A stretch of DNA of 63,223 nt from Clostridium sp. CAG:245 (GTDB lineage Bacteria; Bacillota; Clostridia; TANB77; CAG-508), in the NCBI GenBank assembly GCA_000435175.1, contig FR880072.1, positions 19,114 through 82,336 on the forward strand. Direction: 5' to 3'. The translations under genes were made by a program, and so were the position numbers. Positions 10,098 to 40,617 of the stretch are shown one piece after another (within the stretch, counting starts at the first letter, position 1; the number at the start of each line of letters is the position of its first letter). The notes beneath the pieces were generated by a model, which was given only the letters and a program-made list of their open reading frames with translations, was not told where the DNA came from and did not search any database.

Positions 10098-10823
10098 TTA
10101 ATATAACTTAATAATCGCATGAAGTGTGTTCTCGTCCTCTGACTTCATTGTTACGATATTTTGATTTTTCTCTTTTGTATATAGACACTTAAATTCATCA
10201 TTTAATCGTATCTGTTTTTTATACATTATCTCTATATTATTACACTCTGGTGCTTCATATACTTCTTCTGGTAAAACCTCATAAGCATAGTCCAAATAAT
10301 ATAAATTGTGAATATGCTTGTTAATATCTATGTCTCTTCTTTGTGCTTTATATTCTTGCTTTCTTATTATAGTAGTTGGTTCTTTTAATTTCAAAGTATA
10401 ATCTTCTTTGAATACTTTTTTAGTCTCACATTGATATTTTTCAATAATTTCAGGAGTTAATTCTCTTAGCTTTCCAGTGTTTATATCTACAATTGCCCAC
10501 TTGCTAGTAGCAATTGTGCATAGTTCTCCGCTCTCATCATATATCTCGTAGTCTCTATATGTAAAAATTCTATTTGACTCTCTTCCCCATGTATTTATTG
10601 TTAATTCTTCGTTATATATAGGCCTTTTTAAAATTTTAACTTTCCAACCTAATAGAATCCAACTAAATCCTACATTTTCCATATCATTTAATCCAAAATG
10701 TATGGTTTCTGATTGCCTAGCCCCTGCATTTTCTAATATTTTTAATATTGCCTTATTAGTTATTTTATTGGAGTAACCAACATCTTCTAAATCTATTCTT
10801 GTTTTACTTGTGTATATTGCCAT
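10098..10823 (-). CDS. Acyl-ACP thioesterase
   Basis: 241 aa. The N-terminal hotdog region reads YSNKITNKAILKILENAGARQSE...GFSWILLGWKVKILKRPIYNEELTINTWGR, typical of FatA/B-like thioesterases. Confidence 0.7.
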   Translation of the reverse strand: MAIYTSKTRIDLEDVGYSNKITNKAILKILENAGARQSETIHFGLNDMENVGFSWILLGWKVKILKRPIYNEELTINTWGRESNRIFTYRDYEIYDESGELCTIATSKWAIVDINTGKLRELTPEIIEKYQCETKKVFKEDYTLKLKEPTTIIRKQEYKAQRRDIDINKHIHNLYYLDYAYEVLPEEVYEAPECNNIEIMYKKQIRLNDEFKCLYTKEKNQNIVTMKSEDENTLHAIIKLY

Positions 10824-16644: not shown

Positions 16645-18570
16645 CTATTTTGCAAATGTTTTTATTTCTTCATCTATTTTTTCTACAAAGTCTTCTAGCT
16701 TCATTGCCCCAACGTCTCCGTCTTTTCTGTTACGAACTCCTACTTTTCCAGCTTCTTGTTCTTTATCTCCAACAACTAACATGTATGGAACTTTTTGAAG
16801 TTGTGCTTCACGTATTTTGTATCCGATTTTTTCTGCTCTATCATCAACTTCTACTCTTACTTCTTTATCTTGTAACGCTTCTTTAACTTTGTTTGCATAT
16901 TCTAAGTGCTTATCTGATATTGGGAGTACTTTTACTTGTACTGGTGCAAGCCATGTTGGGAATGCACCCTTTGTTTCTTCTATTAAAAATGCCATAAATC
17001 TATCTAGTGTTCCAAGTATTGCTCTGTGTATTACAACTGGTCTATGAGCTTTTCCATCTTCACCAATGTATTCTAGTTCGAATCTTTGTGGTAATAAGAA
17101 GTCTAATTGGCAAGTTGAAACTGTTACATCATGTCCTATTGCTGATTTTAATTGTACATCTAGCTTTGGTCCATAGAATGCTGCTTCGCCTTCTGCCTCG
17201 TAGAAGTCTAATCCTAGTTCTGTTAGTATTTCACGAAGTTGACTTTCTGCCTTGTCCCACATTTCGTCATCGTCAAAGTATTTGTGTTTGTCGTTTTTGT
17301 CTCTTAATGATAATCTAAATTTGTAGTCTTTAAATCCAAAGTCTTTGTAAACATCTAGTATTAATTTTACAACTTTTCCAACTTCATCTTTTATTTGGTC
17401 TGGTCTTACGAATAAGTGCGCATCATTTTGGCACATCTCACGCACTCTTTCAATACCGCAAACTGTTCCGCTGTCTTCATATCTAAAGTCGTGTGCTAAT
17501 TCACCAATTCTTATTGGTAAGTCTTTGTATGAACGCATTTTGCTCTTGAATATTAGCATGTGATGTGGGCAGTTCATTGGTCTTAATACTAATTCTTCGT
17601 TGTCCATTTTCATTACTGGGAACATATCCTCTTTGTAGTGGTCCCAGTGTCCTGATGTTTTGTATAGTTCAACGTTTGCAAGTGATGGTGTGTATACATG
17701 TTTGTATCCCATTCTTATTTCTTTGTCCTGAATATATCTTTCAAGCAATCTTCTTACTGTTGCACCATTTGGCAAATACATTGGAAGTCCTGAACCTACT
17801 AATTTATGTGTCATGAATAGTTCTAAGTCTTTTCCTAATTTTCTGTGGTCTCTTTGTTTTGCTTCTTCTAATTTTGCTAAATGTTCTTCAAGCAAGCTTG
17901 CCTTTGGGAATGATATAGCATAAATCCTTTGAAGCATTTTATTCTTCTCGTCACCTCTCCAATAGGCTCCAGAAGTTGATAATAATTTAGCACATTTTAC
18001 TTTTCCTGTGCTCATTAAGTGAGGTCCTGCACATAAATCTGTGAATTCACCTTGTTTATAAAATGATAAAACTTCGTCTTCTGGTAAGTCTTCTATTAGT
18101 TCTACCTTGTAATCTTCTCCTGCATCTTTCATTAATTTAATAGCTTCGCTTCTTGGAAGTTCAAATCTTTCTATTGGTAAATCTTCTTTTATAATTTTTT
18201 TCATTTCAGCTTCTACCTTCTCGAAATCAGCCTCTGAAAATCTGTATTCTGTGTCGAAATCATAGTAAAATCCACCATCTATAGCTGGTCCAATCGCAAG
18301 CTTAACATCTTTATATAATCTCTTGATAGCTTGTGCCATTATGTGAGATGTCGTATGCCAATATGCTTTTTTTCCATCTTCATCATCAAATGTTAAAATT
18401 TCTACATTGCAGTCTTTGTTTAAATTGTATCTTAAATCAACAACCTTTCCATCTACTCTTCCTGCAGTTGCAACTCTTGCTAAACCTTCGCTAATCTCTT
18501 TTGCAAGGTCTATTACAGAAATGCCTTCCTGTACTTCTCTTTTGCTTCCGTCTTTTAATGTAATTATCAT
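16645..18570 (-). CDS. thrS: Threonyl-tRNA synthetase
   Basis: Begins with a TGS domain (MIITLKDGSKREV) and carries class II aaRS motifs (HRAILGTLDRF). The start at 18570 is behind AAAGGAGGA. The longer ORF-track start would run into the T-box terminator. Confidence 0.95.
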   Translation of the reverse strand: MIITLKDGSKREVQEGISVIDLAKEISEGLARVATAGRVDGKVVDLRYNLNKDCNVEILTFDDEDGKKAYWHTTSHIMAQAIKRLYKDVKLAIGPAIDGGFYYDFDTEYRFSEADFEKVEAEMKKIIKEDLPIERFELPRSEAIKLMKDAGEDYKVELIEDLPEDEVLSFYKQGEFTDLCAGPHLMSTGKVKCAKLLSTSGAYWRGDEKNKMLQRIYAISFPKASLLEEHLAKLEEAKQRDHRKLGKDLELFMTHKLVGSGLPMYLPNGATVRRLLERYIQDKEIRMGYKHVYTPSLANVELYKTSGHWDHYKEDMFPVMKMDNEELVLRPMNCPHHMLIFKSKMRSYKDLPIRIGELAHDFRYEDSGTVCGIERVREMCQNDAHLFVRPDQIKDEVGKVVKLILDVYKDFGFKDYKFRLSLRDKNDKHKYFDDDEMWDKAESQLREILTELGLDFYEAEGEAAFYGPKLDVQLKSAIGHDVTVSTCQLDFLLPQRFELEYIGEDGKAHRPVVIHRAILGTLDRFMAFLIEETKGAFPTWLAPVQVKVLPISDKHLEYANKVKEALQDKEVRVEVDDRAEKIGYKIREAQLQKVPYMLVVGDKEQEAGKVGVRNRKDGDVGAMKLEDFVEKIDEEIKTFAK

Positions 18571-24970: not shown

Positions 24971-27166
24971 TTATTTATTTCTTCTTACTTCATATACGCT
25001 GTCTATTTTTCTTATTGCTTTTAAAACACTGTTCAACTGTGCTATATTGCTTACTTCTAGCGTTAATTCCGTTAATACTATTCTTTCTTTAGATACTTTT
25101 GATGATACCGCCATTATAGGTGTTTTTTCTGCAGTTATTGTTGCAATTATGTCTGCAAGCAATCCATCTCTATCATTTGAAAATACTACAACATCAACAT
25201 TATAGCTCGATGGTTTGTCTGTATACCATGAAACATCTATCATTCTGTTTTCTTCAGATACCAAGTCTTTTACGTTCTTGCAGTCTTTTCTATGTACAGA
25301 TACGCCTCTTCCTTTTGTAATATATCCAACAATTTCGTCTCCTGGTACTGGGTTACAACATTTTGATAGTTTTACTAGACAGTTGTCTATTCCTTTTACA
25401 ATTACACCACTTGTTGATGGTTTGTTGTTTGTCTTTTCCTTTGTAAGTTCTTCTATTTTTTCTTCTAGATTTTCTTCTTTATGAACTTTTCTGTATTCTT
25501 CAAGTACTCTTGAAACTATTTTATTTGCTGTAATTGTTCCGAATCCAACACTTGCAAACATGTCATCTGCACTATTATATTTGTATCTTTCAAGTGCAGC
25601 TTCAACAAACTCCGGTCTAAACAATTCTGGGTAGCTCATTCCAATTTTCTTTACTTCTTTTTCTAAAAAGTCTTTTCCTCTTGCAATGTTTTCTACTCTT
25701 TCATTTTTCTTGAACCATTGTTGAATTCTAGTCTTTGCTGTACTACTCTTTATAAATTTAAGCCAGTCTCTACTTGGTCCTTTAGATTTATCTGATGTAA
25801 TAATCTCTACAATATCACCATTTTTTAATTTTGTTACAATAGGCATCATCTTGCTGTTTATCTTACAGCCAGTCATATGGTTTCCTATTTCTTCATGAAT
25901 ACTATAAGCAAAATCTATTGGTGTGGCTCCTCTTGGTAATACTTGAATTTTTCCCTTTGGAGTAAACACATAAACCTCATCTTCAAACAACTCTGTTTTT
26001 AATGTATTTAAGAACTCTTGTGGGTCTTGCATGTCTTTTTGCCATTCAAGTGTTTCTCTTAGCCAAGATAATTTATCTTGATTTACTACTACATTTGCCT
26101 TCTTGCCTCCCATGAAGCTTGCCTCTTTGTAGGCCCAGTGTGCGGCAATACCATATTCGGCTATTCTATGCATATCCCAAGTACGAATCTGTACCTCGAA
26201 TGGAGTTCCTTTTGGTCCTATCAAAGTTGTGTGTAAAGATTGGTACATGTTAGGTTTTGGAACCGAAATATAATCCTTAAATCTTCCTGGCATTGGGTTA
26301 TAAAGCTCATGCACAACACCTAATGCCGCATAACAATCCTTTACAGAATTTACAATAATTCTTAATGCGAATAAATCATAAATCTGGTCCAGAGTCTTAT
26401 TGTCTCTCTGCATTTTTCTAAAAATACTATATAAATGCTTTGCTCTACCAGTTATTTCAGCTTCTATTTTTTGCTTTTTTAATTGAACTCTTATCTCGTC
26501 CATAATCTGGTCGATGAATTTCAACCTTTCTTCTCTCTTCTTGTCTATTCCTTCAACAAGTTCTCTATATTCCTCTGGGTATAAATATTTAAATGATAAA
26601 TCCTCTAGTTCCCATTTTAAAGAATACATACCAAGTCTATTTGCAAGTGGAGCATACAAGTCCATTGTCTCCCTTGCATTTGCAATTTGACGGTCTCTGG
26701 CCAAATATTTTAATGTTCTCATGTTATGAAGTCTATCGGCTAATTTAATAAGAATTACTCTTATGTCTTTTCCCATTGCCAAGAACATTTTTCTGTAGTT
26801 TTCAACTTGTTGCTCTTGTTCACTCGTATAATTTAATTTTCCAAGCTTTGTAACACCATCAACCATTTCTGCAATCTCTGGCGAAAATTCCTTAGACAAA
26901 TCTTGCAAAGTTACATCTGTATCTTCAATTACATCATGTAAAAGAGCAGCACAAATAGTGCTCTCATCAAGTCCAAGTGTAGACAATATATATGCAACTT
27001 GAACCGGATGGATTATGTATGGTTCTCCAGACCTTCTTAATTGGTCTCCATGTTTAGACTTTGCAAAATCATATGCTCTTCTTATTAATTTTAAATCTGC
27101 TCTTCTATTAGATTTTTTTGCATTTTCTAATACTTCTTCTATGGTGTGATTTACGTTTTCCGACAT
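24971..27166 (-). CDS. relA: Bifunctional (p)ppGpp synthetase/hydrolase
   Basis: 731 aa with an HD domain (HDVIEDT), synthetase motifs (YQSLHTTL, EVQIRT), and TGS and ACT regions. Confidence 0.95.
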   Translation of the reverse strand: MSENVNHTIEEVLENAKKSNRRADLKLIRRAYDFAKSKHGDQLRRSGEPYIIHPVQVAYILSTLGLDESTICAALLHDVIEDTDVTLQDLSKEFSPEIAEMVDGVTKLGKLNYTSEQEQQVENYRKMFLAMGKDIRVILIKLADRLHNMRTLKYLARDRQIANARETMDLYAPLANRLGMYSLKWELEDLSFKYLYPEEYRELVEGIDKKREERLKFIDQIMDEIRVQLKKQKIEAEITGRAKHLYSIFRKMQRDNKTLDQIYDLFALRIIVNSVKDCYAALGVVHELYNPMPGRFKDYISVPKPNMYQSLHTTLIGPKGTPFEVQIRTWDMHRIAEYGIAAHWAYKEASFMGGKKANVVVNQDKLSWLRETLEWQKDMQDPQEFLNTLKTELFEDEVYVFTPKGKIQVLPRGATPIDFAYSIHEEIGNHMTGCKINSKMMPIVTKLKNGDIVEIITSDKSKGPSRDWLKFIKSSTAKTRIQQWFKKNERVENIARGKDFLEKEVKKIGMSYPELFRPEFVEAALERYKYNSADDMFASVGFGTITANKIVSRVLEEYRKVHKEENLEEKIEELTKEKTNNKPSTSGVIVKGIDNCLVKLSKCCNPVPGDEIVGYITKGRGVSVHRKDCKNVKDLVSEENRMIDVSWYTDKPSSYNVDVVVFSNDRDGLLADIIATITAEKTPIMAVSSKVSKERIVLTELTLEVSNIAQLNSVLKAIRKIDSVYEVRRNK

Positions 27167-27196: not shown

Positions 27197-28888
27197 TTAG
27201 CTTATGCTATGTCTCATGTCTTTTAGATTAATTTGTATATTTTCCATTCCCTTATAACTATTTATCTCTAAGTTTCCTACAACATCTACTTTTGAACCTA
27301 TCGCATATTCAGAAGATATATTTCCTAAATTAAATCCTATTGTGTCTATGTATTTGTTTTCGTCTTGAAGCATTGCTTTCAAGTGTTTTCCTTCCGAAAG
27401 TGTTCTGATTGATGTTATTTTCAAATTACTAATTTGGAATAATGGCATCTTATTTCCTTCTCCAAATGGTTCTAGCAATTCTAAGTCTTTTATATCTTTT
27501 ATGCTGATATCTTGTAATTGTACCTTTTCATCTATTTTAATTACTGGAACAATAGATGAAATGTTAGATTTTTCAGCATATTCTTCAAACTCTTTTTTAA
27601 ATTTTTCAAAATTATCTTTTTCTATTGTAATTCCAATTGCCATGCTGTGTCCACCAAATTGCTTGATGTACGTACTGCATTTTTCTAATGCCTCATGCAA
27701 GTCAAATCCAGGAATACTTCTTCCAGAACCACGAGCTAAATCGTCTTCGTAGCAAAGTAATACGCTAGGCTTAAAATACATGTCTGTAATCTTTGATGAA
27801 ACAATTCCAATAACGCCATGGTGCCAGTTTTCTCCACCTAATACTATACATGGAAGTCTCTGCTGTTCTGGGTCTTCCATCATCTTTTGAGCTTCATTAA
27901 ATATTCTCTTTTCAATTTCTTGGCGTTCTTGATTATACTCATTTAAATTATGTGTTATTCTCTCTGCCTCATCTTTACTATCTGTTAAAAATAGCTCTAA
28001 AGCTTCTTTTTCATGCCCCATTCTTCCACACGCATTTATTCTTGGAGCAACTCCAAAAGATATTGCCATAGAATCTATTTTTTTATAACCAATACTATCT
28101 AATAATACTTTTAAACCAATATTTCGTGTCTGTCTAACTAGCTTTAATCCTAATTTTGATATAGTTCTATTTTCGTCTACAAGTGGAACAATATCAGAAA
28201 TTGTTCCAACACATACTAAATCTAAGTATTTTAAATATTCCTCTTCTCTTACTCCCAGCCTCATCGAAATAGCCTGAGTTAATTTAAACGCAACACCTAC
28301 ACCAGCTAACCCATTAAATGGGTATTTGTTGTCTTTTCTCTTACAATCAACCACTGCAACCGCATCTGGCAATGTTTCGGTTGGTTCGTGGTGGTCAGTC
28401 ACAACAGTATCTATTCCAAATGACTTTGCAAGTTCAATCTCTTTGTTTCCAGTAATTCCACAATCAACCGTTATAATCAATGTATGTTTATTGTCTGCAA
28501 TTTCTCTTATTGCATTCTCGTTTAACCCATACCCCTCATGCAATCTATTTGGAATATACACATCTGTTTCAAGCCCTCTCTCAGCCAAAAATCTCTTCAA
28601 AACAGTGCTACTCGTAATTCCATCAACATCATAATCTCCATAAATTGCAACCTTTTCATGAGTTTCAATTGCCTTAACGACTCTATCTACCGCCTTCTCC
28701 ATGTCTGGCATCATGAACGGATCATGAAAATCTGTCCTTCTTGGATGTAAGAAAACCTCTATCTCATCACTGTTTGTTAATCCTTTATTTGCAATAATAT
28801 TTGCAACCAATTTACTTACGTTAAATTCTTCTGATATCTTGTTAATCAGTACATCATTTGCTTCGTTTAATTCCCATTTTTTATTCAA
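27197..28888 (-). CDS. recJ: Single-stranded-DNA-specific exonuclease RecJ
   Basis: 563 aa with DHH motifs (GDYDVDGITS, TDHH) and the DHHA1 motif GGHSMAIG. Confidence 0.93.
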   Translation of the reverse strand: MNKKWELNEANDVLINKISEEFNVSKLVANIIANKGLTNSDEIEVFLHPRRTDFHDPFMMPDMEKAVDRVVKAIETHEKVAIYGDYDVDGITSSTVLKRFLAERGLETDVYIPNRLHEGYGLNENAIREIADNKHTLIITVDCGITGNKEIELAKSFGIDTVVTDHHEPTETLPDAVAVVDCKRKDNKYPFNGLAGVGVAFKLTQAISMRLGVREEEYLKYLDLVCVGTISDIVPLVDENRTISKLGLKLVRQTRNIGLKVLLDSIGYKKIDSMAISFGVAPRINACGRMGHEKEALELFLTDSKDEAERITHNLNEYNQERQEIEKRIFNEAQKMMEDPEQQRLPCIVLGGENWHHGVIGIVSSKITDMYFKPSVLLCYEDDLARGSGRSIPGFDLHEALEKCSTYIKQFGGHSMAIGITIEKDNFEKFKKEFEEYAEKSNISSIVPVIKIDEKVQLQDISIKDIKDLELLEPFGEGNKMPLFQISNLKITSIRTLSEGKHLKAMLQDENKYIDTIGFNLGNISSEYAIGSKVDVVGNLEINSYKGMENIQINLKDMRHSIS

Positions 28889-29170
28889 ATTTTTCTCCTT
28901 ACCTTTTTAACATAATATTGACAATATTTTATAACAAACAGCCCAAAAATACAAGCATTTGAGGTAAAAATCATTTGGTAAATGTGAAATATCATATCTT
29001 TTGGCGGTCTGTAAATTGTATCAAGTAATGTTTTAGATTTAAGAATAGAGCAGTCATTGAATTACATTGTTTAGGCTTGTATACCTGTTGTAAATGGCAA
29101 AATAGTATGTCTTTACATCTACACCTGTGAATATACATACTTTTTTATTTTTTTAATTTGCTGAGTATAC

Positions 29171-29203
29171 CAAAACAACAGGAGGCGAAAATTTCGCCTC
29201 CTG
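29171..29203 (-). terminator. Intrinsic terminator of the PhoH2-like gene
   Basis: The reverse strand reads CAGGAGGCGAAA-T-TTTCGCCTCCTG followed by TTGTTTTG. Confidence 0.75.
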
Positions 29204-29285
29204 CCACTTGCTATGGAGTATTATTAGATTTACAATCACCTATCCTTTATATTTCGTTTGGTTATAACTTCTCTCTAATTTTACA

Positions 29286-30641
29286 TTAAAGAATTTCGAG
29301 TGCCTCCTGTGCCAGCTTGCCTCTCACAGATTTCTTGCTGTTGAGAGTAACCTGGAAGGTATGCGGATTGCCCTTCATCTTCTCGCTCAAATAGACCAAA
29401 CCATTATAGCGAGAGTTGAGTTCAGGATTGTTAACCTGGTCAGGGTCTCCCAAGAAGATAAACTTCGAACCTTCGGCCGAACGAGTAACAATATCCTTGA
29501 TGTCGCACGGTTTCACATTCTGCGTCTCATCAATAATAAACACAGTATGAGTAATTGTGCGACCACGCAGGAAACCAATCGGCTGAATCTCAATGTCTCC
29601 TCTTTCAAAGAATTCCTGAGCCTTCTTCTTCAGCTGAGCATTGGTAAAATCCGGGAACTTCGGACGAAGAATCTCCTTCAGATTGTCCAAGATACCTCCA
29701 AGATACGGACCGACCTTGTCGTCAATTTCACCAGGCAAGAAGCCAATTTCCTCATTGCCAACAGTAACAGTCGGAGTAGCAACAATAATCTGCTTATAAG
29801 ACACTCTGTTTTTGTCTCCCTTCTTTTCAAGGGAACTCAGAGCCATCGCCAAAGAGCAGTAAGTTTTGCCAGTACCGGCAACACCCTTCACAACTACCAA
29901 AGGTGCAATATCAGGAGGTGTTAGCAGCGATTCCCAGAACATGTCCTGCTCATTATTGAGCGACTTATGCATAACATTTTTGTAATACTGCAAACGAATA
30001 ATCCTGCCATTGGTATAACGACCAATAAGACCGGAATGCTCTCCGTTTATCACAACAAACTGGTTTTCCACCCACTCGTAATTCTCGTACTGCTGAACCT
30101 CCTCAACAGGAACACCATTTTCATCAGTGAACAGTCTGTCCAATGCTTCGCCCTGAATAAAGATTTCAGCTTTTCCGGTGTACTGGTCACAGGGCTTGGG
30201 GAAGATTTCATCCTTAAACAGCTCTGTGGTAATGCCCAGCTGATTGCCCTTCAACCGAATGTTCGGGTTTTTGGAAATCAGAATAACTTTCTCATTATTT
30301 GCCATCAGGTCTTTGCAAACCTGATAAACTCTGTGGTCAAGCCGAGAAAAGTCCGCAAGGTTTGCAATCTCCGCAGAAATAGGACCGTTATCCACAACTC
30401 GCAGACGGCTACCGTTACTCTGTTCAAAACCTTTTTCAGAAAGCAAATCCTTCTGCGGGATGTTGTCAATGTACTCAATCAGCTGGCTTGCCAAACTTTT
30501 CTTTTCAGGCACACCATTGTACCGATAAAGATTCTGCAAAATCGCCATAGGGATAACAATAGTATTGTCATCACCAAACCTCAAAGTAGGATTTTTTGAG
30601 GCCAACAACGACTCAGTTCTCAAGACAAATACTTTTTTCAT
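29286..30641 (-). CDS. PhoH2/YlaK-type protein: degenerate N-terminal PIN-like domain plus PhoH P-loop ATPase
   Basis: Contains Walker A GVAGTGKT, Walker B FIIDETQN, GDPDQV and the NNEQDMFWESLL linker. I placed the start at ATG 30641, 10 nt after AAGGAG. The gene is GC-rich relative to the host (27/60 in line 29401-29460). Confidence 0.8.
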   Translation of the reverse strand: MKKVFVLRTESLLASKNPTLRFGDDNTIVIPMAILQNLYRYNGVPEKKSLASQLIEYIDNIPQKDLLSEKGFEQSNGSRLRVVDNGPISAEIANLADFSRLDHRVYQVCKDLMANNEKVILISKNPNIRLKGNQLGITTELFKDEIFPKPCDQYTGKAEIFIQGEALDRLFTDENGVPVEEVQQYENYEWVENQFVVINGEHSGLIGRYTNGRIIRLQYYKNVMHKSLNNEQDMFWESLLTPPDIAPLVVVKGVAGTGKTYCSLAMALSSLEKKGDKNRVSYKQIIVATPTVTVGNEEIGFLPGEIDDKVGPYLGGILDNLKEILRPKFPDFTNAQLKKKAQEFFERGDIEIQPIGFLRGRTITHTVFIIDETQNVKPCDIKDIVTRSAEGSKFIFLGDPDQVNNPELNSRYNGLVYLSEKMKGNPHTFQVTLNSKKSVRGKLAQEALEIL

Positions 30642-30717
30642 TTGTATTATACTCCTTTGCAAATTGTGTTCTGAATATAGTGTACTTCAGAACTTTGTGT
30701 GTATTCGAACTTCTTAC

Positions 30718-30746
30718 ATTATATCACGCAAAGACCCATTTTTCAA
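30718..30746 (-). promoter_or_regulatory. Promoter of the PhoH2-like gene
   Basis: The reverse strand reads TTGAAA (30741-30746), a 17-nt spacer, then TATAAT (30718-30723) preceded by TGA. Confidence 0.6.
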
Positions 30747-30903
30747 CAATTTACATAATATTTTTGACTTGTTTTTTACGAATCACACCCACTTTATTTA
30801 TTTGCAATAAGTGTAGTTTGCACTATTTATAATAAATTTATTTTTATAACATTTGCAACTCAGTTCAAACTGTAAATAGTAACATTTGTTTATATATTAA
30901 CAA

Positions 30904-30930
30904 CTAAGGCTCCCATACTAGGAGCCTTAG
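30904..30930 (-). terminator. Hairpin after the beta-CASP gene (weak T tract)
   Basis: CTAAGGCTCC-catacta-GGAGCCTTAG lies 18 nt after the stop codon. In the transcribed direction it is followed by TTGTTAAT. Confidence 0.5.
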
Positions 30931-30947
30931 CATTTTTACGAATTATT

Positions 30948-32366
30948 TTATTCAAACTTGGTAGACATGCTCTTTACAAGTCCATCATGATTCACACGGA
31001 AGAAATAGCCACATCCTAAAATACCAACTCTATCTGTATCTACTTCATTGATAATCCTTTCTGCAAAAATTTGCTTTGTATCCGCCTCACCGTGGTTTAC
31101 AAGTACAAGCTCAAGGTGTTTGAACTTCTTGAGAAAGTCAATCATCTCATCAGCTTTTGCATGTGCAGAGTATTCAGTAGTATATTCCACCTGTGCCCTT
31201 TTCTTTACAAGAGTTCCTCCAATTTGCACAGGAGTTCCTACCTCAGCTTCTTTAAGCCTTGCTCCCAGAGTACCTTCTGCAGTATAACCAGTAAAGTGAA
31301 TTAAGGCATTTTCCCGGGTTAAATACTCCGGAATATACACCTGTGCAGGTCCATATGAGCCCATACCGGAAGAAGTCAAAATAATTTTTGCTTCCTCACT
31401 TTCCAATATTTCCGCCCTACTTGTTCTATCGACAAAAGTTAAATTTTCCGGCAAGAAATTCCACATTTCTTCCTTAATATCCAGCCCATCTTTAATATAC
31501 ATGTTCGTATATCTAATTGTAAGCTTTCCATCAAGAAAAATAGGAACTTTAACACTCAGCTGACAATTTTCTTGCATGCATTTAATCTCATACAAGATTT
31601 CTTGCGCTCGTCCAAGAGAAAATACAGGTGCAACCACAGTGCCTCCTTTATTGATGCTTTTAAGCACGTTTTCGGCAAAGCACTTAGTAATCTCGCTGGA
31701 TTCCATATTTCCATACGTTGACTCTTGAATAACTGTTAAGGGCAACTCCACAACCCATTTTGGCAGCTCAGGAACATCAAAAAACATATTCTTGTTATTA
31801 TAGTCTCCCGTGAAAAACAAGTTAATGTTTTCATACCCATCACTTGCAATTTGCACCAAAATGCTTGTAGCCCCCATAAGATGACCATTCCTAAAAAAGG
31901 TCGCCTTAATATTAGGACGAATTTGAATGGTTTCCTCGTAATCGCAACCATGGACAAGCTTAATTGTTTGAGTTACATCTCCTTCGTTATACAAACTCGG
32001 ATGGTTCTGCCGTTTTGCAACATCTTTCAGAACTCGGTAGCTGTCCTCCAATGCCAACGGCAAAAGTTTTGCGGTGGTTTTACTCATATAAATTTCCTTA
32101 TCATACCCCTTATTTACCAAAAAAGGTAAACGACCAGTATGATCTACATGATTATGAGTAACCAGGCAAAAATCAATATTAGCAGGATTAAAAGGCAAAA
32201 CTTCATTATTCTTGCTGTACTGCCTTTCCTGGAAAAGACCACAGTCAACAACAAATTTGACCGTACTATTATCTGGCTGTTTTACAATAATCAGATTGCA
32301 TGAGCCAGTTACCTCTGGATGCACAGCCATTATGTCTACATAGAATCTCCGTTCTTTTGAAATCAT
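30948..32366 (-). CDS. Beta-CASP family metallo-beta-lactamase nuclease (RNA-specificity-domain type)
   Basis: Contains HNHVDH (motif 2), NGHLMG, FTGDY, ESTYG (beta-CASP motif A), EYSAHAKADEM (motif B) and VNHGE (motif C). The start at ATG 32366 is 7 nt after GGAGGA. Line 31201-31260 is 25/60 G+C. Confidence 0.8.
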   Translation of the reverse strand: MISKERRFYVDIMAVHPEVTGSCNLIIVKQPDNSTVKFVVDCGLFQERQYSKNNEVLPFNPANIDFCLVTHNHVDHTGRLPFLVNKGYDKEIYMSKTTAKLLPLALEDSYRVLKDVAKRQNHPSLYNEGDVTQTIKLVHGCDYEETIQIRPNIKATFFRNGHLMGATSILVQIASDGYENINLFFTGDYNNKNMFFDVPELPKWVVELPLTVIQESTYGNMESSEITKCFAENVLKSINKGGTVVAPVFSLGRAQEILYEIKCMQENCQLSVKVPIFLDGKLTIRYTNMYIKDGLDIKEEMWNFLPENLTFVDRTSRAEILESEEAKIILTSSGMGSYGPAQVYIPEYLTRENALIHFTGYTAEGTLGARLKEAEVGTPVQIGGTLVKKRAQVEYTTEYSAHAKADEMIDFLKKFKHLELVLVNHGEADTKQIFAERIINEVDTDRVGILGCGYFFRVNHDGLVKSMSTKFE

Positions 32367-32435
32367 AAAATAATCCTCCATTTCATGATAAAGTTATTAA
32401 ACTCTAAAATGTTTTTTCAAACATTTTTCATTTTC

Positions 32436-32464
32436 ATTCTACTACATCATATAGCCATAGTCAA
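32436..32464 (-). promoter_or_regulatory. Promoter of the beta-CASP gene
   Basis: The reverse strand reads TTGACT (32459-32464), a 17-nt spacer, then TAGAAT (32436-32441). Confidence 0.55.
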
Positions 32465-32511
32465 TAAAAATCGCCCACAAAATAGACAGCCTTTAGTAGC
32501 AGATTTTTTAA

Positions 32512-32631
32512 GATTTACAAAAACAATTTTAAATTTTGAAAAATAATGTCAAGCTCGCCTTTTGAGGAGCCCAAAGGCTCCGACCAAGAGCGCCGTACCG
32601 AAATTTTTCAAAATTAAATTGTTCTTGCAAA
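32512..32631. repeat. Long imperfect palindrome with a GC-rich apex
   Basis: The arms are acaattttaaattttgaaaaat (32523-32544) and atttttcaaaattaaattgt (32603-32622). They enclose about 58 nt that contain a GGAGCC-caaa-GGCTCC hairpin. Confidence 0.6.
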
Positions 32632-32637
32632 GGAAAA

Positions 32638-32670
32638 ATCGCCCAAAAAGGTGCGTCCCCTTTGGGCGAT
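32638..32670 (-). terminator. 33-nt GC-rich hairpin element, copy B; acts as the lysS terminator
   Basis: atcgcccaaaaaggtgcgtcccctttgggcgat lies 8 nt after the lysS stop. It is the only copy followed by a T tract in the transcribed orientation. Confidence 0.75.
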
Positions 32671-32678
32671 TTTTGTTA

Positions 32679-34169
32679 TTAGTCTTCACTTTCTTCTGCT
32701 GCTCTTGGTTTCATTAATGGGTATAAAACTACATCTCTTATGTTATCACTGTTTGTTAAGAATTGTAAGAATCTATCTATTCCAAGTCCCCAACCAGAGA
32801 TTGGTGGCATACCATATTGCATAGCTCTTATATATTCTGTATCTATACTCATGGCCTCTTCATCACCATTAGCCTTTAATTCAGCCTGCTCTATAAATCT
32901 TTTTTCTTGTTCGTCACAGTCTACAAGCTCTGAATATCCATTTATTATTTCTTGTCCATTTACTACTAATTGGAATCTGTCTGTCAATTTTGGATTTTCA
33001 TCATTGCTTCTAGCAAGTGGAGATAAATCTATTGGGTGTTCAATTAGATATGTTGGGTTTATTATGTTTGGTCTACTTACTTTTTTGTATAATGTATCTA
33101 TTAAATTTCCTCTTCCTAATTGTTCTAAGTTGTCTGCCTCTAGTTTTATTCCTTTCGCTTTTATTTCTGCAAGTAAGCTTTCTGCTGTTTCGAATTTGTC
33201 AATATCTATTCCACAGTCTTTAAGTATTAAATCTCTGAATGATACTACTTGCCATTCTCCACCAAAGTCAATTTCTTGTTCTCCAATTTTGATATTTAAG
33301 TTTCCATCGAATAATTTTGATAATATGTATATAATCATTTCTTTTAAGAATTTCATATTATCTCTATAGCACCAATAAGCACTATATCCTTCAACCATTG
33401 TGAAGTCTTGTAAATGGTTTGCATCCATTCCCTCATTTCTGAAGTCTCTTGCAATTTCATACACATTTGAAAATCCACCAATTATAAGTTTTTTTAATGT
33501 TAATTCTGGAGATATTCTTAAATATACGTCCATATCTAATGCATTATGGTGTGTTATGAATGGTTTTGCAGTTGCTCCAGAAGCTGTATTTTGAAGAACT
33601 GGTGTATCTACCTCTAAGAATTCATGTGTATCTAAGAACTCTCTCATTAATCTGATAAACTTTGTTCTTAGTACAAATCTCTTTTTAGCATCATCGTTCA
33701 TTATTAAATCAAGATGTCTCTCTCTGTATACTGCATCTTGGTCTGTTAAACCATGGAATTTTTCTGGAAGTGGACGTATTGCCTTTCCCAAGAATGTGTA
33801 TTCATAAACTTGAAGTGATTTTTCTCCAGCTTGAGTTGTAAATATTTCTCCTTTTACTCCAATGAAGTCACCTATATCAACTGTTTCGTGTAAGAATTTA
33901 TATACATCTTCTCCTAAATCTTCTTTTTTAATAACTAGTTGAAGATGTCCCTCTAAATCCCTTAGATCTATGAAACTTATTTTTCCTAATTTTCTCTTAG
34001 ACATTACTCTTCCAGCAATTGAAACATCTTTTGTTCCATCTGGTAATTCTCTTGCTTCTTTAATTTGATGTGTTCTCTCATATCTCTCTGGATGTACGTT
34101 TACACCATTATCTATTAGCTTTTGCATTTTATCTCTACGTACTTGCATTAATTCTTTTATGTCTGCCAT
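32679..34169 (-). CDS. lysS: Lysyl-tRNA synthetase (class II)
   Basis: About 496 aa containing RERHLDLIMN, FRNEGMD and GLGIDRF motifs. The ATG at 34169 has better RBS spacing than the TTG at 34178. Confidence 0.93.
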   Translation of the reverse strand: MADIKELMQVRRDKMQKLIDNGVNVHPERYERTHQIKEARELPDGTKDVSIAGRVMSKRKLGKISFIDLRDLEGHLQLVIKKEDLGEDVYKFLHETVDIGDFIGVKGEIFTTQAGEKSLQVYEYTFLGKAIRPLPEKFHGLTDQDAVYRERHLDLIMNDDAKKRFVLRTKFIRLMREFLDTHEFLEVDTPVLQNTASGATAKPFITHHNALDMDVYLRISPELTLKKLIIGGFSNVYEIARDFRNEGMDANHLQDFTMVEGYSAYWCYRDNMKFLKEMIIYILSKLFDGNLNIKIGEQEIDFGGEWQVVSFRDLILKDCGIDIDKFETAESLLAEIKAKGIKLEADNLEQLGRGNLIDTLYKKVSRPNIINPTYLIEHPIDLSPLARSNDENPKLTDRFQLVVNGQEIINGYSELVDCDEQEKRFIEQAELKANGDEEAMSIDTEYIRAMQYGMPPISGWGLGIDRFLQFLTNSDNIRDVVLYPLMKPRAAEESED

Positions 34170-34255
34170 ATTTAACAACCCTTTCTAAAAAGCAAAGTTC
34201 TTATATTTACAAAACTTTGCATTTTCTCTTTAAAATTATGTAACCATTATATTAC

Positions 34256-34293: not shown

Positions 34294-36864
34294 TTATTTT
34301 GTTATCCATTTTACTAAATCCAAGTTTGCTGGGTCTAATAACATTTCATTTTTAGGCATTACTCTAAATGTATAACCATAGTTTCCGCCAGTTGTAAGTT
34401 CAACTGTTGCTTCATACTCATATTCTTTCTTTTCATCGTCACTGCCTATTAAATTCATAGGTATTATTTGAATTTTATCAACTATACCATTTTCCATTAT
34501 TTGCCCATAGTAAACTTGTGCTTCTATAGAGTTTTTATCAATGTTTGGTAGATATACTTTACATCTAACTGTAATGTTGTTTCCAGCATCTACTGTAATA
34601 TTATCTAAGTTACCCTTTTCTTGTTTTATTGTTATATCATTCCAGTTCGAATATAAATTGTTTTTCCAACTATTAAATTCTGCAACTGATGATAAATCTG
34701 TGTAATATTTGTTGTACAAATTGCAAAGTGGCATGTAAAATTTATTTGTATAATCTATAAGCATTCTAGCAGTGCTGTATCTTCCAGCATTAGACATTAT
34801 AGATTGCTTCATTATTTCCATCCATCTCTTAGATATTCCGTTTTCGTCTTTATCAAAGAATGTTGGAATTATTTTATTTTCTAATGTTTGATAAATGCTC
34901 TCGCTATCAGCATTATCTTGTTCTTCATAAGAAGAATATTCTGCATTGGTTCCTATTGTCCAACCATTTTTCTGGTTGTATCCTTCTGCCCACCAGCCAT
35001 CAAGCACGCTAAAGTTTATAACGCCATTTACAGCTGCCTTTTGTCCAGATGTACCAGATGCTTCCATTGGTCTTCTTGGATTATTTAGCCATACATCAAC
35101 ACCACTTACTAAATATTTAGATATACCTATATTGTAGTTTTCAAGTAAGAAAATCTTACCTTTAAATTGAGGCTTCATAGATAATTCGTGAATATATCTT
35201 ATTAAATCTTTTCCTCCGTTATCTGATGGATGTGCCTTGCCTGCAAATATTATTTGAACTGGTTTTCCAGCCTCATTTAATATTTGTGTTATTCTCTCTA
35301 AATCTTTGAATATTAAAGTAGCTCTCTTATATGTAGCAAATCTTCTAGAAAATCCTATTGTTAAAGCATTTGGATCTAATTTTGATGTGATATCATTTAT
35401 ATCACTATAACGATATCCCTCTCTTTTTAATCTATTTGTTATATTTTCTTTTACCAATTTTAAAAGCTTAACTTTTCTTTCCATATGAGCATTCCATAAT
35501 TCTTGGTCTGGAATGTCTGCAATCTTCTGCCAGGTTGCATCATTTTTGATATCATCTTGCCAATATGGTTTTAAATATTCATTATATAATCTCTTTAAAT
35601 TTGGTGCTAGCCATGTGCAAGTGTGAATTCCGTTTGTTACATAATCTATTGGAGCTTCATTTGGGGCTATGTTTGGCCATACCTCTCCAAATAATTCTCT
35701 CGAAACCGCACCATGTAATTTACTTACTCCATTCTTCTTTCCAGAGAATTTTAAAGCAAGAATTCCCATGTTAAATCCAGTATTAGATAAATCTGCATTT
35801 GGCTTCATTCCTAATCTGAAAAATTCTTCTTTGGTAATAGAAAATCTATTCCAATAATCTTTAAAATAAGTTTCAACTAAAGATAGTGGGAATATATCAT
35901 TTCCTGCTGGAACTGGTGTATGAGTTGTAAATACTGTTTTTGCAGCAACAATCTCCTCTGCCATATCGAAACTTACTTGTTTCTCTTTAATAATATTCTT
36001 CATTAATTCTAATATTAAGAAAGCAGAATGTCCTTCATTCATATGATATACAGTAGGATTTAATCCTAAAGTTTTTAGAAGACTTGTTCCAGCCATTCCA
36101 AGAACAATTTCTTGTTGGATTCTCATTTCTTGGTTTCCACCATATAAATGAGCTGTTATACCTCTGTATTCAGGAATGTTTGCATCTATATCAGAATCCA
36201 TTAAATATAGTTTAACTCTTCCAACATTAACTTGCCAAACCTTTAGATAAACTCTTTTTTTAGGCATATTTACATACACTAATAAATCTTTGCCTTCTAC
36301 ATCTTTTACAGGATATATTGGTAGAGTATCTATATCATTTTCTCTATCTTCTTCATATTGTTGTCCATAACCATTTATAATTTGATGGAAAAATCCTTTT
36401 TTATATAATAATCCAACAGCCACAAGTGGTATACCTAAATCACTTGCTGACTTCAAGTGGTCTCCTGATAAAATTCCAAGTCCCCCAGAATATATTGATA
36501 AAATTTGGTCTAATCCATATTCTGCTGAAAAATATGCAATCAAATCATTCTTATTATCTGGATAATTTTTCTTAAACCATGTTGATTTACTATTCATGTA
36601 GTCATAAAAATCATTTGCAATTTTATCATATTCCTTCAAAAACTCTGGATTTTCGGCTACTTTTTCCAATCTCTCCTGTGAAACAAGTTTTAAAAACTTA
36701 ACAGGATTCTTTCCAACAGTCTCCCATAAATCACCATCAATTATCTTAAATAATTTTAAGAAGTCTGTATTCCAAGCCCACCATAGGTTACCAGCAATTT
36801 CAGACAATTTATTAATTCTTTCTGGTAGTTGTGGAGTTACTGTTATTTTATTAAATACGTACAT
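34294..36864 (-). CDS. glgP: Alpha-glucan (glycogen/maltodextrin) phosphorylase, GT35 family
   Basis: Contains GGLGILSGDHLKSASDLGIPLV and EASGTSGQKAAVNG (pyridoxal-phosphate Lys region). The start is at ATG 36864, behind GAAGGAGGA. Confidence 0.88.
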   Translation of the reverse strand: MYVFNKITVTPQLPERINKLSEIAGNLWWAWNTDFLKLFKIIDGDLWETVGKNPVKFLKLVSQERLEKVAENPEFLKEYDKIANDFYDYMNSKSTWFKKNYPDNKNDLIAYFSAEYGLDQILSIYSGGLGILSGDHLKSASDLGIPLVAVGLLYKKGFFHQIINGYGQQYEEDRENDIDTLPIYPVKDVEGKDLLVYVNMPKKRVYLKVWQVNVGRVKLYLMDSDIDANIPEYRGITAHLYGGNQEMRIQQEIVLGMAGTSLLKTLGLNPTVYHMNEGHSAFLILELMKNIIKEKQVSFDMAEEIVAAKTVFTTHTPVPAGNDIFPLSLVETYFKDYWNRFSITKEEFFRLGMKPNADLSNTGFNMGILALKFSGKKNGVSKLHGAVSRELFGEVWPNIAPNEAPIDYVTNGIHTCTWLAPNLKRLYNEYLKPYWQDDIKNDATWQKIADIPDQELWNAHMERKVKLLKLVKENITNRLKREGYRYSDINDITSKLDPNALTIGFSRRFATYKRATLIFKDLERITQILNEAGKPVQIIFAGKAHPSDNGGKDLIRYIHELSMKPQFKGKIFLLENYNIGISKYLVSGVDVWLNNPRRPMEASGTSGQKAAVNGVINFSVLDGWWAEGYNQKNGWTIGTNAEYSSYEEQDNADSESIYQTLENKIIPTFFDKDENGISKRWMEIMKQSIMSNAGRYSTARMLIDYTNKFYMPLCNLYNKYYTDLSSVAEFNSWKNNLYSNWNDITIKQEKGNLDNITVDAGNNITVRCKVYLPNIDKNSIEAQVYYGQIMENGIVDKIQIIPMNLIGSDDEKKEYEYEATVELTTGGNYGYTFRVMPKNEMLLDPANLDLVKWITK

Positions 36865-37187
36865 TAAATTTCCTCCTTCGTAACTTATCAAATTCATCTC
36901 ATCGTTTAATATCATCATTCTATATTATGTATTAACAAACAGAAATTGTCAAACCTTTTTGACAATTTTTTTAAATTTAACGAAAAAATTTTTTCTTAAT
37001 TTTTAGACTCTAAATTAGTTCTAATTATATTTACTAAACTTTATTTTTTAAAGTCACTTTAAATTCATATTCTATATGTTATAATATATTTAGTAAAATT
37101 AACATTGCAGAAAATATTTACAAAAATATTTAATAAAGATTTTTTCAATAATACTATTTAATATAATTTGAAAGGGATGAATTTTAT

Positions 37188-38624: not shown

Positions 38625-39242
38625 TTACTCCTCTTCTTTGCTTGCACTGTTTTCTTTGAATTTTGCATAACTTTCCTCAATTGCCCCCAGCAACCAGTCA
38701 TGCACCTCCACAGGAGTCTTGCTTTCAGTATTTAACAGCACCTTATCAATTTCCACGCTTTTTAAAAAGTTGCCAATGATTTCTCTGTTGAACTCATCAA
38801 TAAACTTTCTGTTTACAACGTGACCTTCTCCGCCTCGTCTTCTAATGCTTTCTTCGGTCGGAATAGTAAGTGCTACAATGAAATCAGTCTTAACTCCAAT
38901 AGCTTCAAAGAAATTTTCAACACATTTGCTTTTTTCTTCGGAAAATTCACCACGTTTAGCATACAAATAGTTCCACGAGAGAGAATCCACAATGCCACGG
39001 TCCACCAAAACAATATCTCTGACATTATTAATTTCTTCATAAAGTTTCTGTGCTGTCTTCAAGGTCATCCAGATGTTACCTTTGGAACTACCTGTTTTAA
39101 ACATATCAGGTACAATCTCCGCCGATTCTCTAACTAGCCCAACTTTATAGCCTTTTTCCTCCAAGCTTCTTCTCAGCATTTTCACGCTGGTAGTCTTACC
39201 AGCTTCAGGTGTACCAACAAATTCAACAATGAACGGCCGCAT
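38625..39242 (-). CDS. P-loop nucleotide kinase-like protein (thymidylate-kinase-like fold), compositionally foreign
   Basis: 205 aa. It has a P-loop (FVGTPEAGKTTS), then VGLVRESAEIV, a DR motif (VLVDRGIVDSLSWNY) and a basic lid (RRRGGEG), in the order seen in dTMP/dNMP kinases. Line 38701-38760 is 26/60 G+C. Confidence 0.5.
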   Translation of the reverse strand: MRPFIVEFVGTPEAGKTTSVKMLRRSLEEKGYKVGLVRESAEIVPDMFKTGSSKGNIWMTLKTAQKLYEEINNVRDIVLVDRGIVDSLSWNYLYAKRGEFSEEKSKCVENFFEAIGVKTDFIVALTIPTEESIRRRGGEGHVVNRKFIDEFNREIIGNFLKSVEIDKVLLNTESKTPVEVHDWLLGAIEESYAKFKENSASKEEE

Positions 39243-39480: not shown

Positions 39481-39557
39481 GCACCCTTAGCTCAGTTGGT
39501 CAGAGCAACCGGCTCATAACCGGTCGGTCCAAGGTTCGAATCCTTGAGGGTGCACCA
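39481..39557 (+). tRNA. tRNA with a CAU anticodon (elongator Met or lysidine-dependent Ile2; not an initiator)
   Basis: The acceptor stem is GCACCCT/AGGGTGC, with a D arm AGCTCAGTTGGTCAGAGC and a T arm GGTTCGAATCC. The anticodon loop is CTCATAA and CCA is encoded. The anticodon stem lacks the 3 G-C pairs typical of initiators. By memory it resembles Bacillus tRNA-Ile2. Confidence 0.85.
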
Positions 39558-39582
39558 TTTATTATTTTTTAAATGGCTAAAT

Positions 39583-39668
39583 GGGCAGATGGCCGAGTGG
39601 CTAAAGGCGGCAGACTGTAAATCTGTTCTCGTAAGGGTACGATGGTTCGAATCCATCTCTGCCCACCA
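39583..39668 (+). tRNA. tRNA-Tyr (GUA), class II with a long variable arm
   Basis: The acceptor stem is GGGCAGA/TCTGCCC, with anticodon loop ACTGTAAAT, a variable arm TCTCGTAAGGGTAC and a T arm GGTTCGAATCC. CCA is encoded. Confidence 0.9.
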
Positions 39669-39940
39669 AGAATTAAGTAGTATTCTGAAAAGAATATTAC
39701 TTTTTTTGTTTCTCATAAAAAAAATGGATTCGAAAAGGAGGATCAGAAAAGCGTCCGGTGGACGGTTTTCCCGACGCGGCTTGACGAATCCATTTCTGCC
39801 CACCAAAAATTAAGTAGTATTCTGAAAAGAATATTACTTTTTTTGTTTCTCATAAAAAAAATGGATTCGAAAAGGAGGATCAGAAAAGCGTCCTGTGGAC
39901 GTTTTTCCCGACGTGGCTTGTCGAATCCATCTCTGCCCAC
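39669..39940 (+). repeat. Two tandem 137-nt units, each ending in a copy of the tRNA-Tyr 3' end
   Basis: cgaatccatNtctgcccac(ca) occurs at 39648-39668 (the real tRNA), 39785-39805 and 39922-39940, with a period of exactly 137 nt. Each unit also carries the hairpin AGTAGTATTCTGAAAAGAATATTACT plus a T-run. Confidence 0.85.
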
Positions 39941-39981
39941 AAAAAAACAGCATCTTGAAATATAGATACTGTTTTTATTTC

Positions 39982-40617
39982 TTATTTCATAATTTCTTTT
40001 ATAAATTCTTTTATTTCTCCCTCTTCTGCATTTTCAAAGAAATATTTTTTAAATTGTTCTCTATTTATTGTTTGTAGTAAAAATTCTCTATCAATCTCTT
40101 TTAAAATTGTAAGCATATCTTTATGCGTAATTTTTTTTACTTCATCTAATAGCTTTTTATTAGCCTGCTCTGGTACAACTCTTTCTTTGGGATATCCACC
40201 ACCAGCTGGTGCCTCAAATAATTTTTCAAATATATATCTTAATGTCAATTCTGAACCCCAACCGAAGCCTTTAGCATACCCTAATGCTACCGCATTTCCA
40301 GCATTTATTTGACTAAATAAATACGCATCTGTTGGATCCTCTATGTGACCACATAAAACATTTGGAAAGCTATTTAAAGCAAGACAAGCTCCTTCTCCTG
40401 TGCCACAACCAGTCACAACAAAGTCTACAGCCTTAGAATTTATTAATATTGCTGCTAGTAACCCAGCTTGTACATATGTTAAATTATTTTCTTCTGCACT
40501 TTCCATTCCATAATTATATACTGTATCACCATGTATGTTTGCAACATTCTTTAATTCTTTATAAATTATTGTATTTTTGCTTGCCTGACTATTTTCATTT
40601 ATTAATGCAATTTTCAT
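39982..40617 (-). CDS. RpiB/LacA/LacB family sugar-phosphate isomerase with a C-terminal extension
   Basis: Begins MKIALINENSQ and contains VVTGCGTGEGACLALNSFPNVLCGH. About 60 aa follow the usual domain end. Confidence 0.7.
   Translation of the reverse strand: MKIALINENSQASKNTIIYKELKNVANIHGDTVYNYGMESAEENNLTYVQAGLLAAILINSKAVDFVVTGCGTGEGACLALNSFPNVLCGHIEDPTDAYLFSQINAGNAVALGYAKGFGWGSELTLRYIFEKLFEAPAGGGYPKERVVPEQANKKLLDEVKKITHKDMLTILKEIDREFLLQTINREQFKKYFFENAEEGEIKEFIKEIMK

Follow-up and report, generated by a model that had tools for sequence, protein, structure and literature searches.

The DNA analysed here is a stretch of 63,223 nucleotides of Clostridium sp. CAG:245 (contig FR880072.1, positions 19,114–82,336; below, the window), and our subject is the two genes that it carries between lysS and recJ, one for a PhoH2-like protein and one for a predicted β-CASP ribonuclease. 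An earlier reading of the sequence (the original prediction) had taken these genes for a newly acquired two-gene module, and it was correct that there are two of them, on one strand and between these neighbours: in the list of open reading frames (ORFs) the order on the minus strand is glgP (34294–36918), lysS (32679–34178), β-CASP, PhoH2-like, recJ (27197–28888) and relA (24971–27166). The ORFs themselves run from 29286 to 30662 (PhoH2-like) and from 30948 to 32381 (β-CASP) on that strand, and the probable start codons are an ATG at 32366 for β-CASP (472 amino acids, aa) and an ATG at 30641 for the PhoH2-like gene (451 aa), both of which are preceded by good Shine-Dalgarno boxes and agree with homologues and with most calls in other contigs. 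The alternative upstream β-CASP start, ATG 32381, would give 477 aa; ATG 32366 was chosen because a GGAGG box lies upstream of it, the N-termini of homologues fall there and 472 aa is called in most contigs. We considered whether the 472- and 477-aa forms might be within-species alleles and rejected the idea, since they are only differing start-codon calls. With these starts the intergenic gap is 306 nt, and the 285 nt given originally holds for the annotated ORFs but not for the likely true starts. The two genes are as follows:

30948–32366, minus strand: β-CASP metallo-β-lactamase gene for a predicted ribonuclease of the CPSF73/TTHA0252 type, 472 aa (from Pfam, motifs and homologue N-termini)
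29286–30641, minus strand: PhoH2-family gene, 451 aa, with a degenerate PIN domain and an intact PhoH ATPase domain (from Pfam, an AlphaFold2 model and alignment)

A Pfam profile search bore out the original domain calls for both proteins. The PhoH2-like protein matches PIN_4 (E = 3.1e-9, residues 12–147) and PhoH (1.2e-43), and the β-CASP protein matches Lactamase_B, Beta-Casp (PF10996, 4e-20) and RMMBL (PF07521, 1.6e-9). The motifs GVAGTGKT, FIIDETQN and GDPDQV are all found in the PhoH2-like protein, and the Walker A, Walker B and GDPxQ motifs of its ATPase domain are intact. In its AlphaFold2 model (predicted local distance difference test score, pLDDT, 82.5) the PhoH domain matches 3b85 with a template modelling (TM) score of 0.81, and PIN-fold matches are 1o4w (TM 0.61), 3ix7 (0.62) and SMG6 (2hwx). 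The PIN-like fold that had been assigned to the N-terminus is thus seen in both Pfam and the model, but the original prediction missed the loss of its catalytic residues. The five acidic positions of the PIN domain, which are D, E, D, D and D in canonical PhoH2 and are all kept in the five canonical PhoH2 proteins that we aligned, are R, N, Y, D and N in the window protein; the first Asp is missing in 44 of 44 aligned members of its clade and the last position has lost its acidic residue in 42 of 44, so the PIN domain is predicted to be a pseudo-nuclease. Scanning with a DNA pattern specific to the clade, we found 45 species with this PhoH2 type, all of them metagenome-assembled genomes of uncultured Clostridia, and six more species from an earlier scan bring the number to 51; the scan and a neighbour-joining tree place the protein in a separate clade limited to uncultured gut Clostridia. 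The PIN domain is predicted from these alignments to be catalytically dead throughout the clade (at least 51 species), and the PIN_4 group includes active and inactive members alike (PMC5499597).

PhoH2 joins a PIN RNase and a PhoH RNA helicase in one protein; the mycobacterial protein unwinds RNA in an ATP-dependent manner and cleaves it, and in the published model the PIN ring receives the RNA once it is unwound (PMC7390352). In the window protein, too, a PIN_4 fold comes first and a PhoH P-loop ATPase, complete with Walker A and B motifs, second; the protein matches the NCBIfam PhoH2 model over its full length, but only weakly (137 bits, against an equivalog cut-off of 680 for NF053827). 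It differs from the mycobacterial protein in its substituted PIN acidic residues and in that its clade recurrently adjoins a β-CASP nuclease gene (below). It differs from the PhoH2/PhoAT toxin-antitoxin pair in having no short antitoxin-like gene upstream, as the minus strand from the β-CASP terminator to the PhoH2 start has no credible phoAT-like ORF of at least 20 aa.

All ten catalytic residues expected of a β-CASP nuclease are intact in the second protein (D46, H76xH78xD80H81, H167, D193, E220, H407 and H430), and the catalytic residues of metallo-β-lactamase motifs 1–4 and β-CASP motifs A–C are invariant across 45 family members. The closest solved structures, by sequence comparison with the PDB, are Cas14, archaeal CPSF and TTHA0252. 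The protein lies below the NCBIfam thresholds for Cas14, aCPSF1 and RNase J, and the RNase J models are not reached by a wide margin (18 bits against 400 for TIGR00649, and 16 against 820 for RnjA). Its likeness to TTHA0252 and the CPSF73 type extends to the order of the metallo-β-lactamase, β-CASP and RMMBL domains, with all seven motifs intact, to its size (472 aa, against 431 for TTHA0252), to the lack of N-terminal KH domains in both and to a full-length PDB match of 139 bits; the identity is only ~30%, however, and the window protein belongs to a distinct subfamily of low-GC gut Clostridia. We know of no partner helicase described for TTHA0252. Cas14, the nuclease of type VII CRISPR-Cas, is the top match in both NCBIfam (241 bits) and the PDB (153 bits) and has the β-CASP nuclease core in common with it, but the NCBIfam score compares with a cut-off of 800, the match spans model positions 10–428 of 612, and the window protein is without the C-terminal ~180 residues of Cas14. 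Tandem Repeats Finder gave no CRISPR-like array in 20000–45000, and no Cas7 or Cas5 gene is nearby, the neighbours being lysS, recJ and relA. As judged from its motifs, the protein is a stand-alone ribonuclease of the CPSF73/TTHA0252 type with a complete catalytic site and predicted activity. TTHA0252 itself is a 5′–3′ exoribonuclease and probably also an endoribonuclease that alters global mRNA levels, and the transcriptome of its knock-out overlaps that of YbeY, whose gene adjoins a PhoH-like gene with which it is reported to act together (PMC4229858).

The original prediction treated the segment as a horizontally acquired islet and a possibly variable insert at the recJ–lysS junction, and comparison of that junction in strains and relatives contradicts both ideas. 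Our strain survey was keyed on the flanking lysS (identical in sequence) and so is unbiased toward the segment; the arrangement lysS–β-CASP–PhoH2–recJ is present in 24 of the 24 contigs found in this way. Contigs with exactly these proteins are more than 99.6% identical over 18 kb, except one at 98.8%. Beyond the species, the pair occupies the same slot in loci L101, L103, L108 and L102 (the last truncated), which are GTDB species representatives or metagenome contigs, and is thus present in all the relatives that were sampled. No integrase, transposase or att duplication was found at the borders among the ORFs, as had been stated originally. The DNA of the segment nevertheless differs sharply from that of its flanks when the window is compared with related genomes:

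28971–32677, strand not applicable: sharp-edged block of deep divergence, interpreted as an allele-replacement tract (from identity and synonymous divergence against related genomes)

The flanks (to the lysS stop codon, and from ~28970 on) are 94–98% identical, and the interior only 75–77%. Synonymous divergence (dS) is 1.7–3.5 in the pair, against 0.08–0.21 in glgP, lysS, recJ and relA, with a ratio of nonsynonymous to synonymous divergence (dN/dS) of 0.04–0.07, and the block ends at the lysS stop codon on one side and in the promoter region of recJ on the other. The saturated dS and low dN/dS indicate an old divergence under purifying selection rather than fast evolution, and with its sharp edges the block fits an exchange of the resident pair for a distant allele, with recombination in the flanking DNA. 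The window copy would thus be a diverged allele pair brought in by homologous recombination, not a new insertion. PhoH2 is also more diverged than its flanks in one other species pair (L301/L282), but not in a second (L114/L115). Farther away, relatives whose recJ is 40–64% identical have neither gene near recJ.

The compositional anomaly that had been noticed is real. The single-line G+C counts made by hand are exact (27/60 at 29401–29460, 25/60 at 31201–31260, and 17/60 in recJ at 28801–28860), G+C is 0.381 for 28889–32678 against 0.309 for the whole window, with a peak of 0.444, and G+C at third codon positions (GC3) is 0.35–0.49 in the two genes against 0.19–0.24 in the flanking genes. The genes are therefore atypical in composition, as claimed, but they are not foreign on that account, since the trait is family-wide and is a loss of A at third positions rather than a simple gain of G+C. 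The frequency of A at third positions (A3) is 0.13 and 0.25 in the two window genes, against 0.42–0.54 in four flanking genes, and at four-fold degenerate sites A is 0.12 and 0.30, against 0.52–0.68; T at third positions shows no reduction, and among purine codons those ending in G are enriched. Across the lineage (survey loci L021–L047 and L281–L324) GC3 of the PhoH2 clade exceeds that of the ORFs around it at all 42 species loci, with a mean excess of +0.13 and a neighbour standard deviation of 0.035, and PhoH2 is the ORF of highest GC3 in 34 of 39 loci; for β-CASP orthologues GC3 is above the neighbours in 25 of 26. Lineage-wide A3 is 0.35 in both families and 0.47–0.48 in their neighbours, and it lies under the neighbour mean at 39 of 39 PhoH2 loci and 33 of 34 β-CASP loci, whether the two genes are adjacent or not. 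Because depletion of A accompanies both families at any location, it is not a mark of the lysS–recJ locus. High-expression codon bias was rejected as its cause since G-ending purine codons are enriched, and a GC-rich donor or GC-biased conversion was rejected since T is not reduced. Such a signature, common to two mostly unlinked genes throughout a lineage, is an odd signal that may report selection on the mRNAs by the encoded activity.

Is the adjacency of the two genes peculiar to this genus? The β-CASP gene immediately adjoins the dead-PIN PhoH2 gene in 10 of 51 species (clade-specific scan plus earlier scan; the former read 8-kb blocks, by which some neighbours are hidden), and a β-CASP neighbour is found at 0 of 66 canonical PhoH2 loci (Fisher p = 1.4e-4, or 1.8e-3 excluding the window genus; the species are not independent). 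The genes are arranged in tandem in the window genus, convergently in L284, L319, L320 and L323, and divergently in L311, L321 and L322. The divergent and convergent groups differ in their flanking genes, and between related genomes often just the pair aligns. In neighbour-joining trees of the two proteins, the only type of tree built for both, the divergent group and the convergent group branch off as sisters at the base, with the window genus deep among unlinked orthologues, from which it follows that there were at least two independent associations, or one retention and one re-association. The two gene trees agree in deep topology, and, nested as their proteins are in lineage-specific clades, both genes look vertically inherited within the lineage. 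In one of the convergent loci (L319, 6428–7117) the PhoH2 beside β-CASP is only 229 aa long and may be a decaying copy or reflect an assembly break. The two-gene module originally proposed is therefore half borne out by the co-localisation check: adjacency does recur, but most orthologues are unlinked. It had also been stated that the pair is not a named system, and this agrees with a limited full-text literature search, in which we found no description of the PhoH2 plus β-CASP pair or of the dead-PIN PhoH2 clade; the one paper returned that names both PhoH and beta-CASP treats PhoH-like and TTHA0252 as separate genes.

Unlinked orthologues lie among housekeeping genes (thrS/rimP-nusA-infB, ligA, fba, smpB, obg, trpS, pth and dnaE). 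As a possible trace of translocation of PhoH2 we sought an empty thrS–rimP site in the window, where thrS is present (16648–18564) and rimP is absent. At four loci where β-CASP orthologues are not beside PhoH2 (L031, L034, L040 and L042) the neighbour is a ~537-aa Clp/FtsH-like AAA+ ATPase with Walker A and HEIGH motifs, and at L112 a 384-aa Clp-like AAA protein (9464–10618) adjoins β-CASP; these neighbours may be another ATPase partner of the nuclease.

Each gene has its own predicted promoter, an inverted repeat in its 5′ untranslated region (UTR) and a hairpin after its stop codon, as the original prediction had it:

32436–32464, minus strand: β-CASP sigma-A-type promoter, TTGACT-17-TAGAAT, 10/12 (consensus scan, prediction only)
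32406–32427, minus strand: β-CASP mRNA 5′ stem-loop, AAAATGTTT-GAAA-AAACATTTT, with a 9-nt core and then a second small hairpin (repeat search)
30904–30930, minus strand: β-CASP post-stop hairpin, likely a terminator, with a 10-bp stem (prediction)
30718–30746, minus strand: PhoH2-like promoter, TTGAAA-17-TGnTATAAT, with an extended -10, 11/12 (consensus scan)
30668–30693, minus strand: PhoH2-like 5′-UTR hairpin, GTTCTGAA-N10-TTCAGAAC, with perfect arms at 30668–30675 and 30686–30693 (repeat search)
29179–29203, minus strand: PhoH2-like terminator hairpin, CAGGAGGCGAAA/TTTCGCCTCCTG, with perfect 12-nt arms (repeat search)

Where the divergent alleles are aligned, conservation is visibly higher in the promoters, 5′ UTRs and terminators than at synonymous coding sites. 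L101, L103 and L108 conserve the β-CASP promoter in their divergent alleles, its 5′ stem-loop persists in L103 and L194 despite base changes (the individual z-scores are weak, -1.4 to -2.7), and its terminator stem is held by compensatory changes in the sister alleles. The PhoH2-like promoter is likewise conserved in sister alleles, the stretch from promoter to start is ~82–84% identical in 90-nt windows against 64–88% within the coding sequence, and the terminator is identical in L103 and L101 and has a single loop difference in L108. PhoH2 orthologues elsewhere have strong perfect hairpins of unrelated sequence at the same UTR position (z mostly -2 to -4). A search of the segment with Rfam gave nothing but a chance snoRNA match (E = 0.57). 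The 5′-UTR hairpins are compatible with post-transcriptional control, which is known for several ribonucleases, and the structured 5′ UTRs together with the A-depleted codon usage suggest control or selection at the mRNA level.

Other features of the segment and the window lie outside the gene pair. One of them separates the lysS terminator from the β-CASP promoter:

32508–32623, no strand assigned: small inverted-repeat element (from comparison with relatives)

This element is ~115 nt long with AT-rich 16-nt inverted ends and a GC-rich core; it is missing at this site in L101, L103 and L108, and copies of 76–86% identity are present at other intergenic sites of theirs (two in L103). Because of these dispersed intergenic copies it looks like a small repeat of the miniature inverted-repeat transposable element (MITE) or repetitive extragenic palindrome (REP) kind. 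At the other end, the stretch between the PhoH2 terminator and the recJ promoter (28971–29177) is ~150 nt longer than in relatives, with an imperfect 19-nt inverted repeat (29099–29117/29128–29146) in the additional part. Elsewhere in the window, a gene for a 205-aa P-loop protein (38625–39242, minus strand), with only weak MobB, thymidylate-kinase and KTI12 matches, is the third compositional outlier among the real genes of the window (A3 0.28, GC3 0.38, like the PhoH2/β-CASP pair). Plus-strand tRNA-Met and tRNA-Tyr genes (39481–39668) are followed by a 137-nt tandem repeat of 2.5 copies (39648–39992), which starts with the 3′ end of tRNA-Tyr and resembles the reiterated att-type duplications of a tRNA integration site.

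The fixed residency and recurrent adjacency make the two genes look like a helicase paired with a nuclease, and not like a defence islet of recent arrival. With somewhat less than even confidence we favour the reading that this is a PhoH2 helicase whose PIN domain is dead and whose nuclease has been outsourced to the β-CASP protein, the two acting in RNA processing or decay. They would be two separately transcribed, chromosomally fixed RNA-metabolism genes of a lineage of uncultured low-GC gut Clostridia, probably GTDB order TANB77, family CAG-508. The PhoH ring would bind structured RNA and then unwind or thread it using ATP, and the cleavage step, which in canonical PhoH2 would fall to the protein's own PIN ring, would here be supplied in trans by the β-CASP protein acting as a 5′–3′ exonuclease and endonuclease, so that RNA processing or decay would be the work of a small machine made up of helicase and nuclease. 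Both genes would be ancestral to the lineage and would have become or stayed neighbours several times; in the window genus, PhoH2 would have come to lie beside a β-CASP gene already resident in the lysS–recJ slot, as in the relative at L194. A further proposal, which we consider unlikely, is that PhoH2 now serves solely as helicase or adaptor for RNA and recruits the CPSF73-like β-CASP enzyme through its dead PIN ring, both mRNAs having been recoded, by the lineage-wide loss of A at synonymous sites and by structured 5′ UTRs, to escape or tune the encoded activity.

By analogy, the closest functional parallel for a PhoH ATPase working with a nuclease in trans is the PhoH (YbeZ)–YbeY pair, in which the ATPase is encoded beside a separate metallo-ribonuclease and the two are thought to cooperate in RNA processing (PMC4229858). 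The present pair differs in that the nuclease is β-CASP and not YbeY, the ATPase carries a predicted dead PIN domain and the genes are predicted not to be co-transcribed. The window's own ybeY (56602–57087) is without a phoH beside it: the slot between it and yqfD (58352–59536), the usual place of phoH and pgpH, holds a 413-aa ORF with no Pfam match (57106–58347, minus strand). No other PhoH homologue is encoded anywhere in the window, and the original prediction was thus right that canonical phoH is missing from this slot. In concept the proposed pair also resembles the degradosomes (RNase E with RhlB, and RNase Y or J with CshA), where an ATP-driven RNA helicase aids a ribonuclease on structured RNA; here it would be a PhoH ring and not a DEAD-box protein, and a CPSF73-like β-CASP enzyme and not RNase E, Y or J, and the interaction of the two is a proposal.

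A number of observations weigh against the favoured reading and speak instead for two independent housekeeping RNA-metabolism genes, whose adjacency would be a by-product of gene shuffling in small genomes with clustered translation and RNA genes; we take this explanation seriously while leaning against it. In ~80% of the species with dead-PIN PhoH2 the β-CASP gene is not adjacent, and the unlinked orthologues sit in the housekeeping contexts described above. None of the 80 β-CASP loci listed in our first genome scan has PhoH2, recJ or lysS within 7 kb, PhoH2 is within 7 kb at 0 of 27 loci of closer β-CASP orthologues, and of the 80 PhoH2 loci listed, a set mostly of canonical proteins from other phyla, only one (L127) has a β-CASP neighbour; these first scans were samples (the β-CASP scan missed even the sister species), too sparse for the lack of whole-genome shotgun prefixes common to the two locus sets to be informative. 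Every allele has a predicted terminator hairpin and, after it, a second promoter in the intergenic gap, so that with a promoter and terminator each the genes would form no operon. L103 and L108 have identical PhoH2 proteins and β-CASP proteins that are 89% identical, with the differences mostly in the 5′ third of the β-CASP gene, which indicates that the two genes are exchanged independently. The more distant L194 has glgP–lysS–β-CASP–recJ without PhoH2, and this, the unlinked majority and the independent recombination speak against an obligate two-gene module. Finally, the independent adjacency events are few (two, perhaps three), and the window genus is itself the one that prompted the hypothesis. 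What independence would leave as coincidence is the occurrence of adjacency in three orientations with varied flanks and in the dead-PIN clade only (10/51 against 0/66), the persistence of the pair as its flanks change between the divergent and convergent groups, the unusual codon composition common to both families, and the loss of the PIN active site, which fits reliance on another nuclease.

An NTPase with a separate nuclease is a common defence layout, and the original prediction had drawn attention to it here. An anti-phage or anti-plasmid module, with conflict with phages driving allele turnover, would account for deeply diverged mosaic alleles at a conserved locus, chiefly in the β-CASP 5′ third, as well as for the Cas14 matches and for the phage homologues that both families have in PHROGs. 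We nevertheless judge it very improbable. PADLOC gave only local P-loop matches of ~70 residues for the PhoH2-like protein (Nhi, 2.9e-8, and AbiO) and no match better than E = 0.006 for β-CASP, the Cas14 score falls far short of its cut-off with no CRISPR-like array in the region searched, and the contexts seen are housekeeping throughout with no defence genes or mobile elements nearby. The presence of the pair is fixed, and its dN/dS reflects purifying, not diversifying, selection. On viral contigs full-length relatives are found only at ~30% identity or less, although they reach 43% over the PhoH domain alone, and no contig has both genes; a phage origin was rejected on these grounds. Recent acquisition of a foreign islet from a distant, GC-richer donor would explain the sharp boundaries and the raised G+C (0.38–0.44 in the segment against 0.31, with GC3 raised as given above), but it is largely refuted and now hardly credible: every relative and strain sampled has the pair in this slot, both proteins have their nearest relatives within the same lineage of uncultured Clostridia, the anomaly follows the orthologues at the 42/42 and 25/26 other loci and is specific to A with T not reduced, and the borders carry no integrase or att duplication.

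Few poorly understood proteins of bacteria and phages are as widespread as the PhoH-family ATPases, and the division of labour between helicase and PIN domain in PhoH2 is still only a model. If the two genes studied here are unrelated, the finding shrinks to two ordinary RNA-metabolism genes and an allele replacement. If a dead PIN ring does recruit the β-CASP protein, they would constitute a previously undescribed bacterial helicase-nuclease machine for RNA decay. With a predicted dead PIN domain and, recurrently, the gene of a separate, intact β-CASP nuclease next door, this clade allows a direct test of the idea that PhoH rings pass RNA on to a nuclease, and the pair would for the first time place the stand-alone CPSF73-like β-CASP enzymes of bacteria in a functional context.

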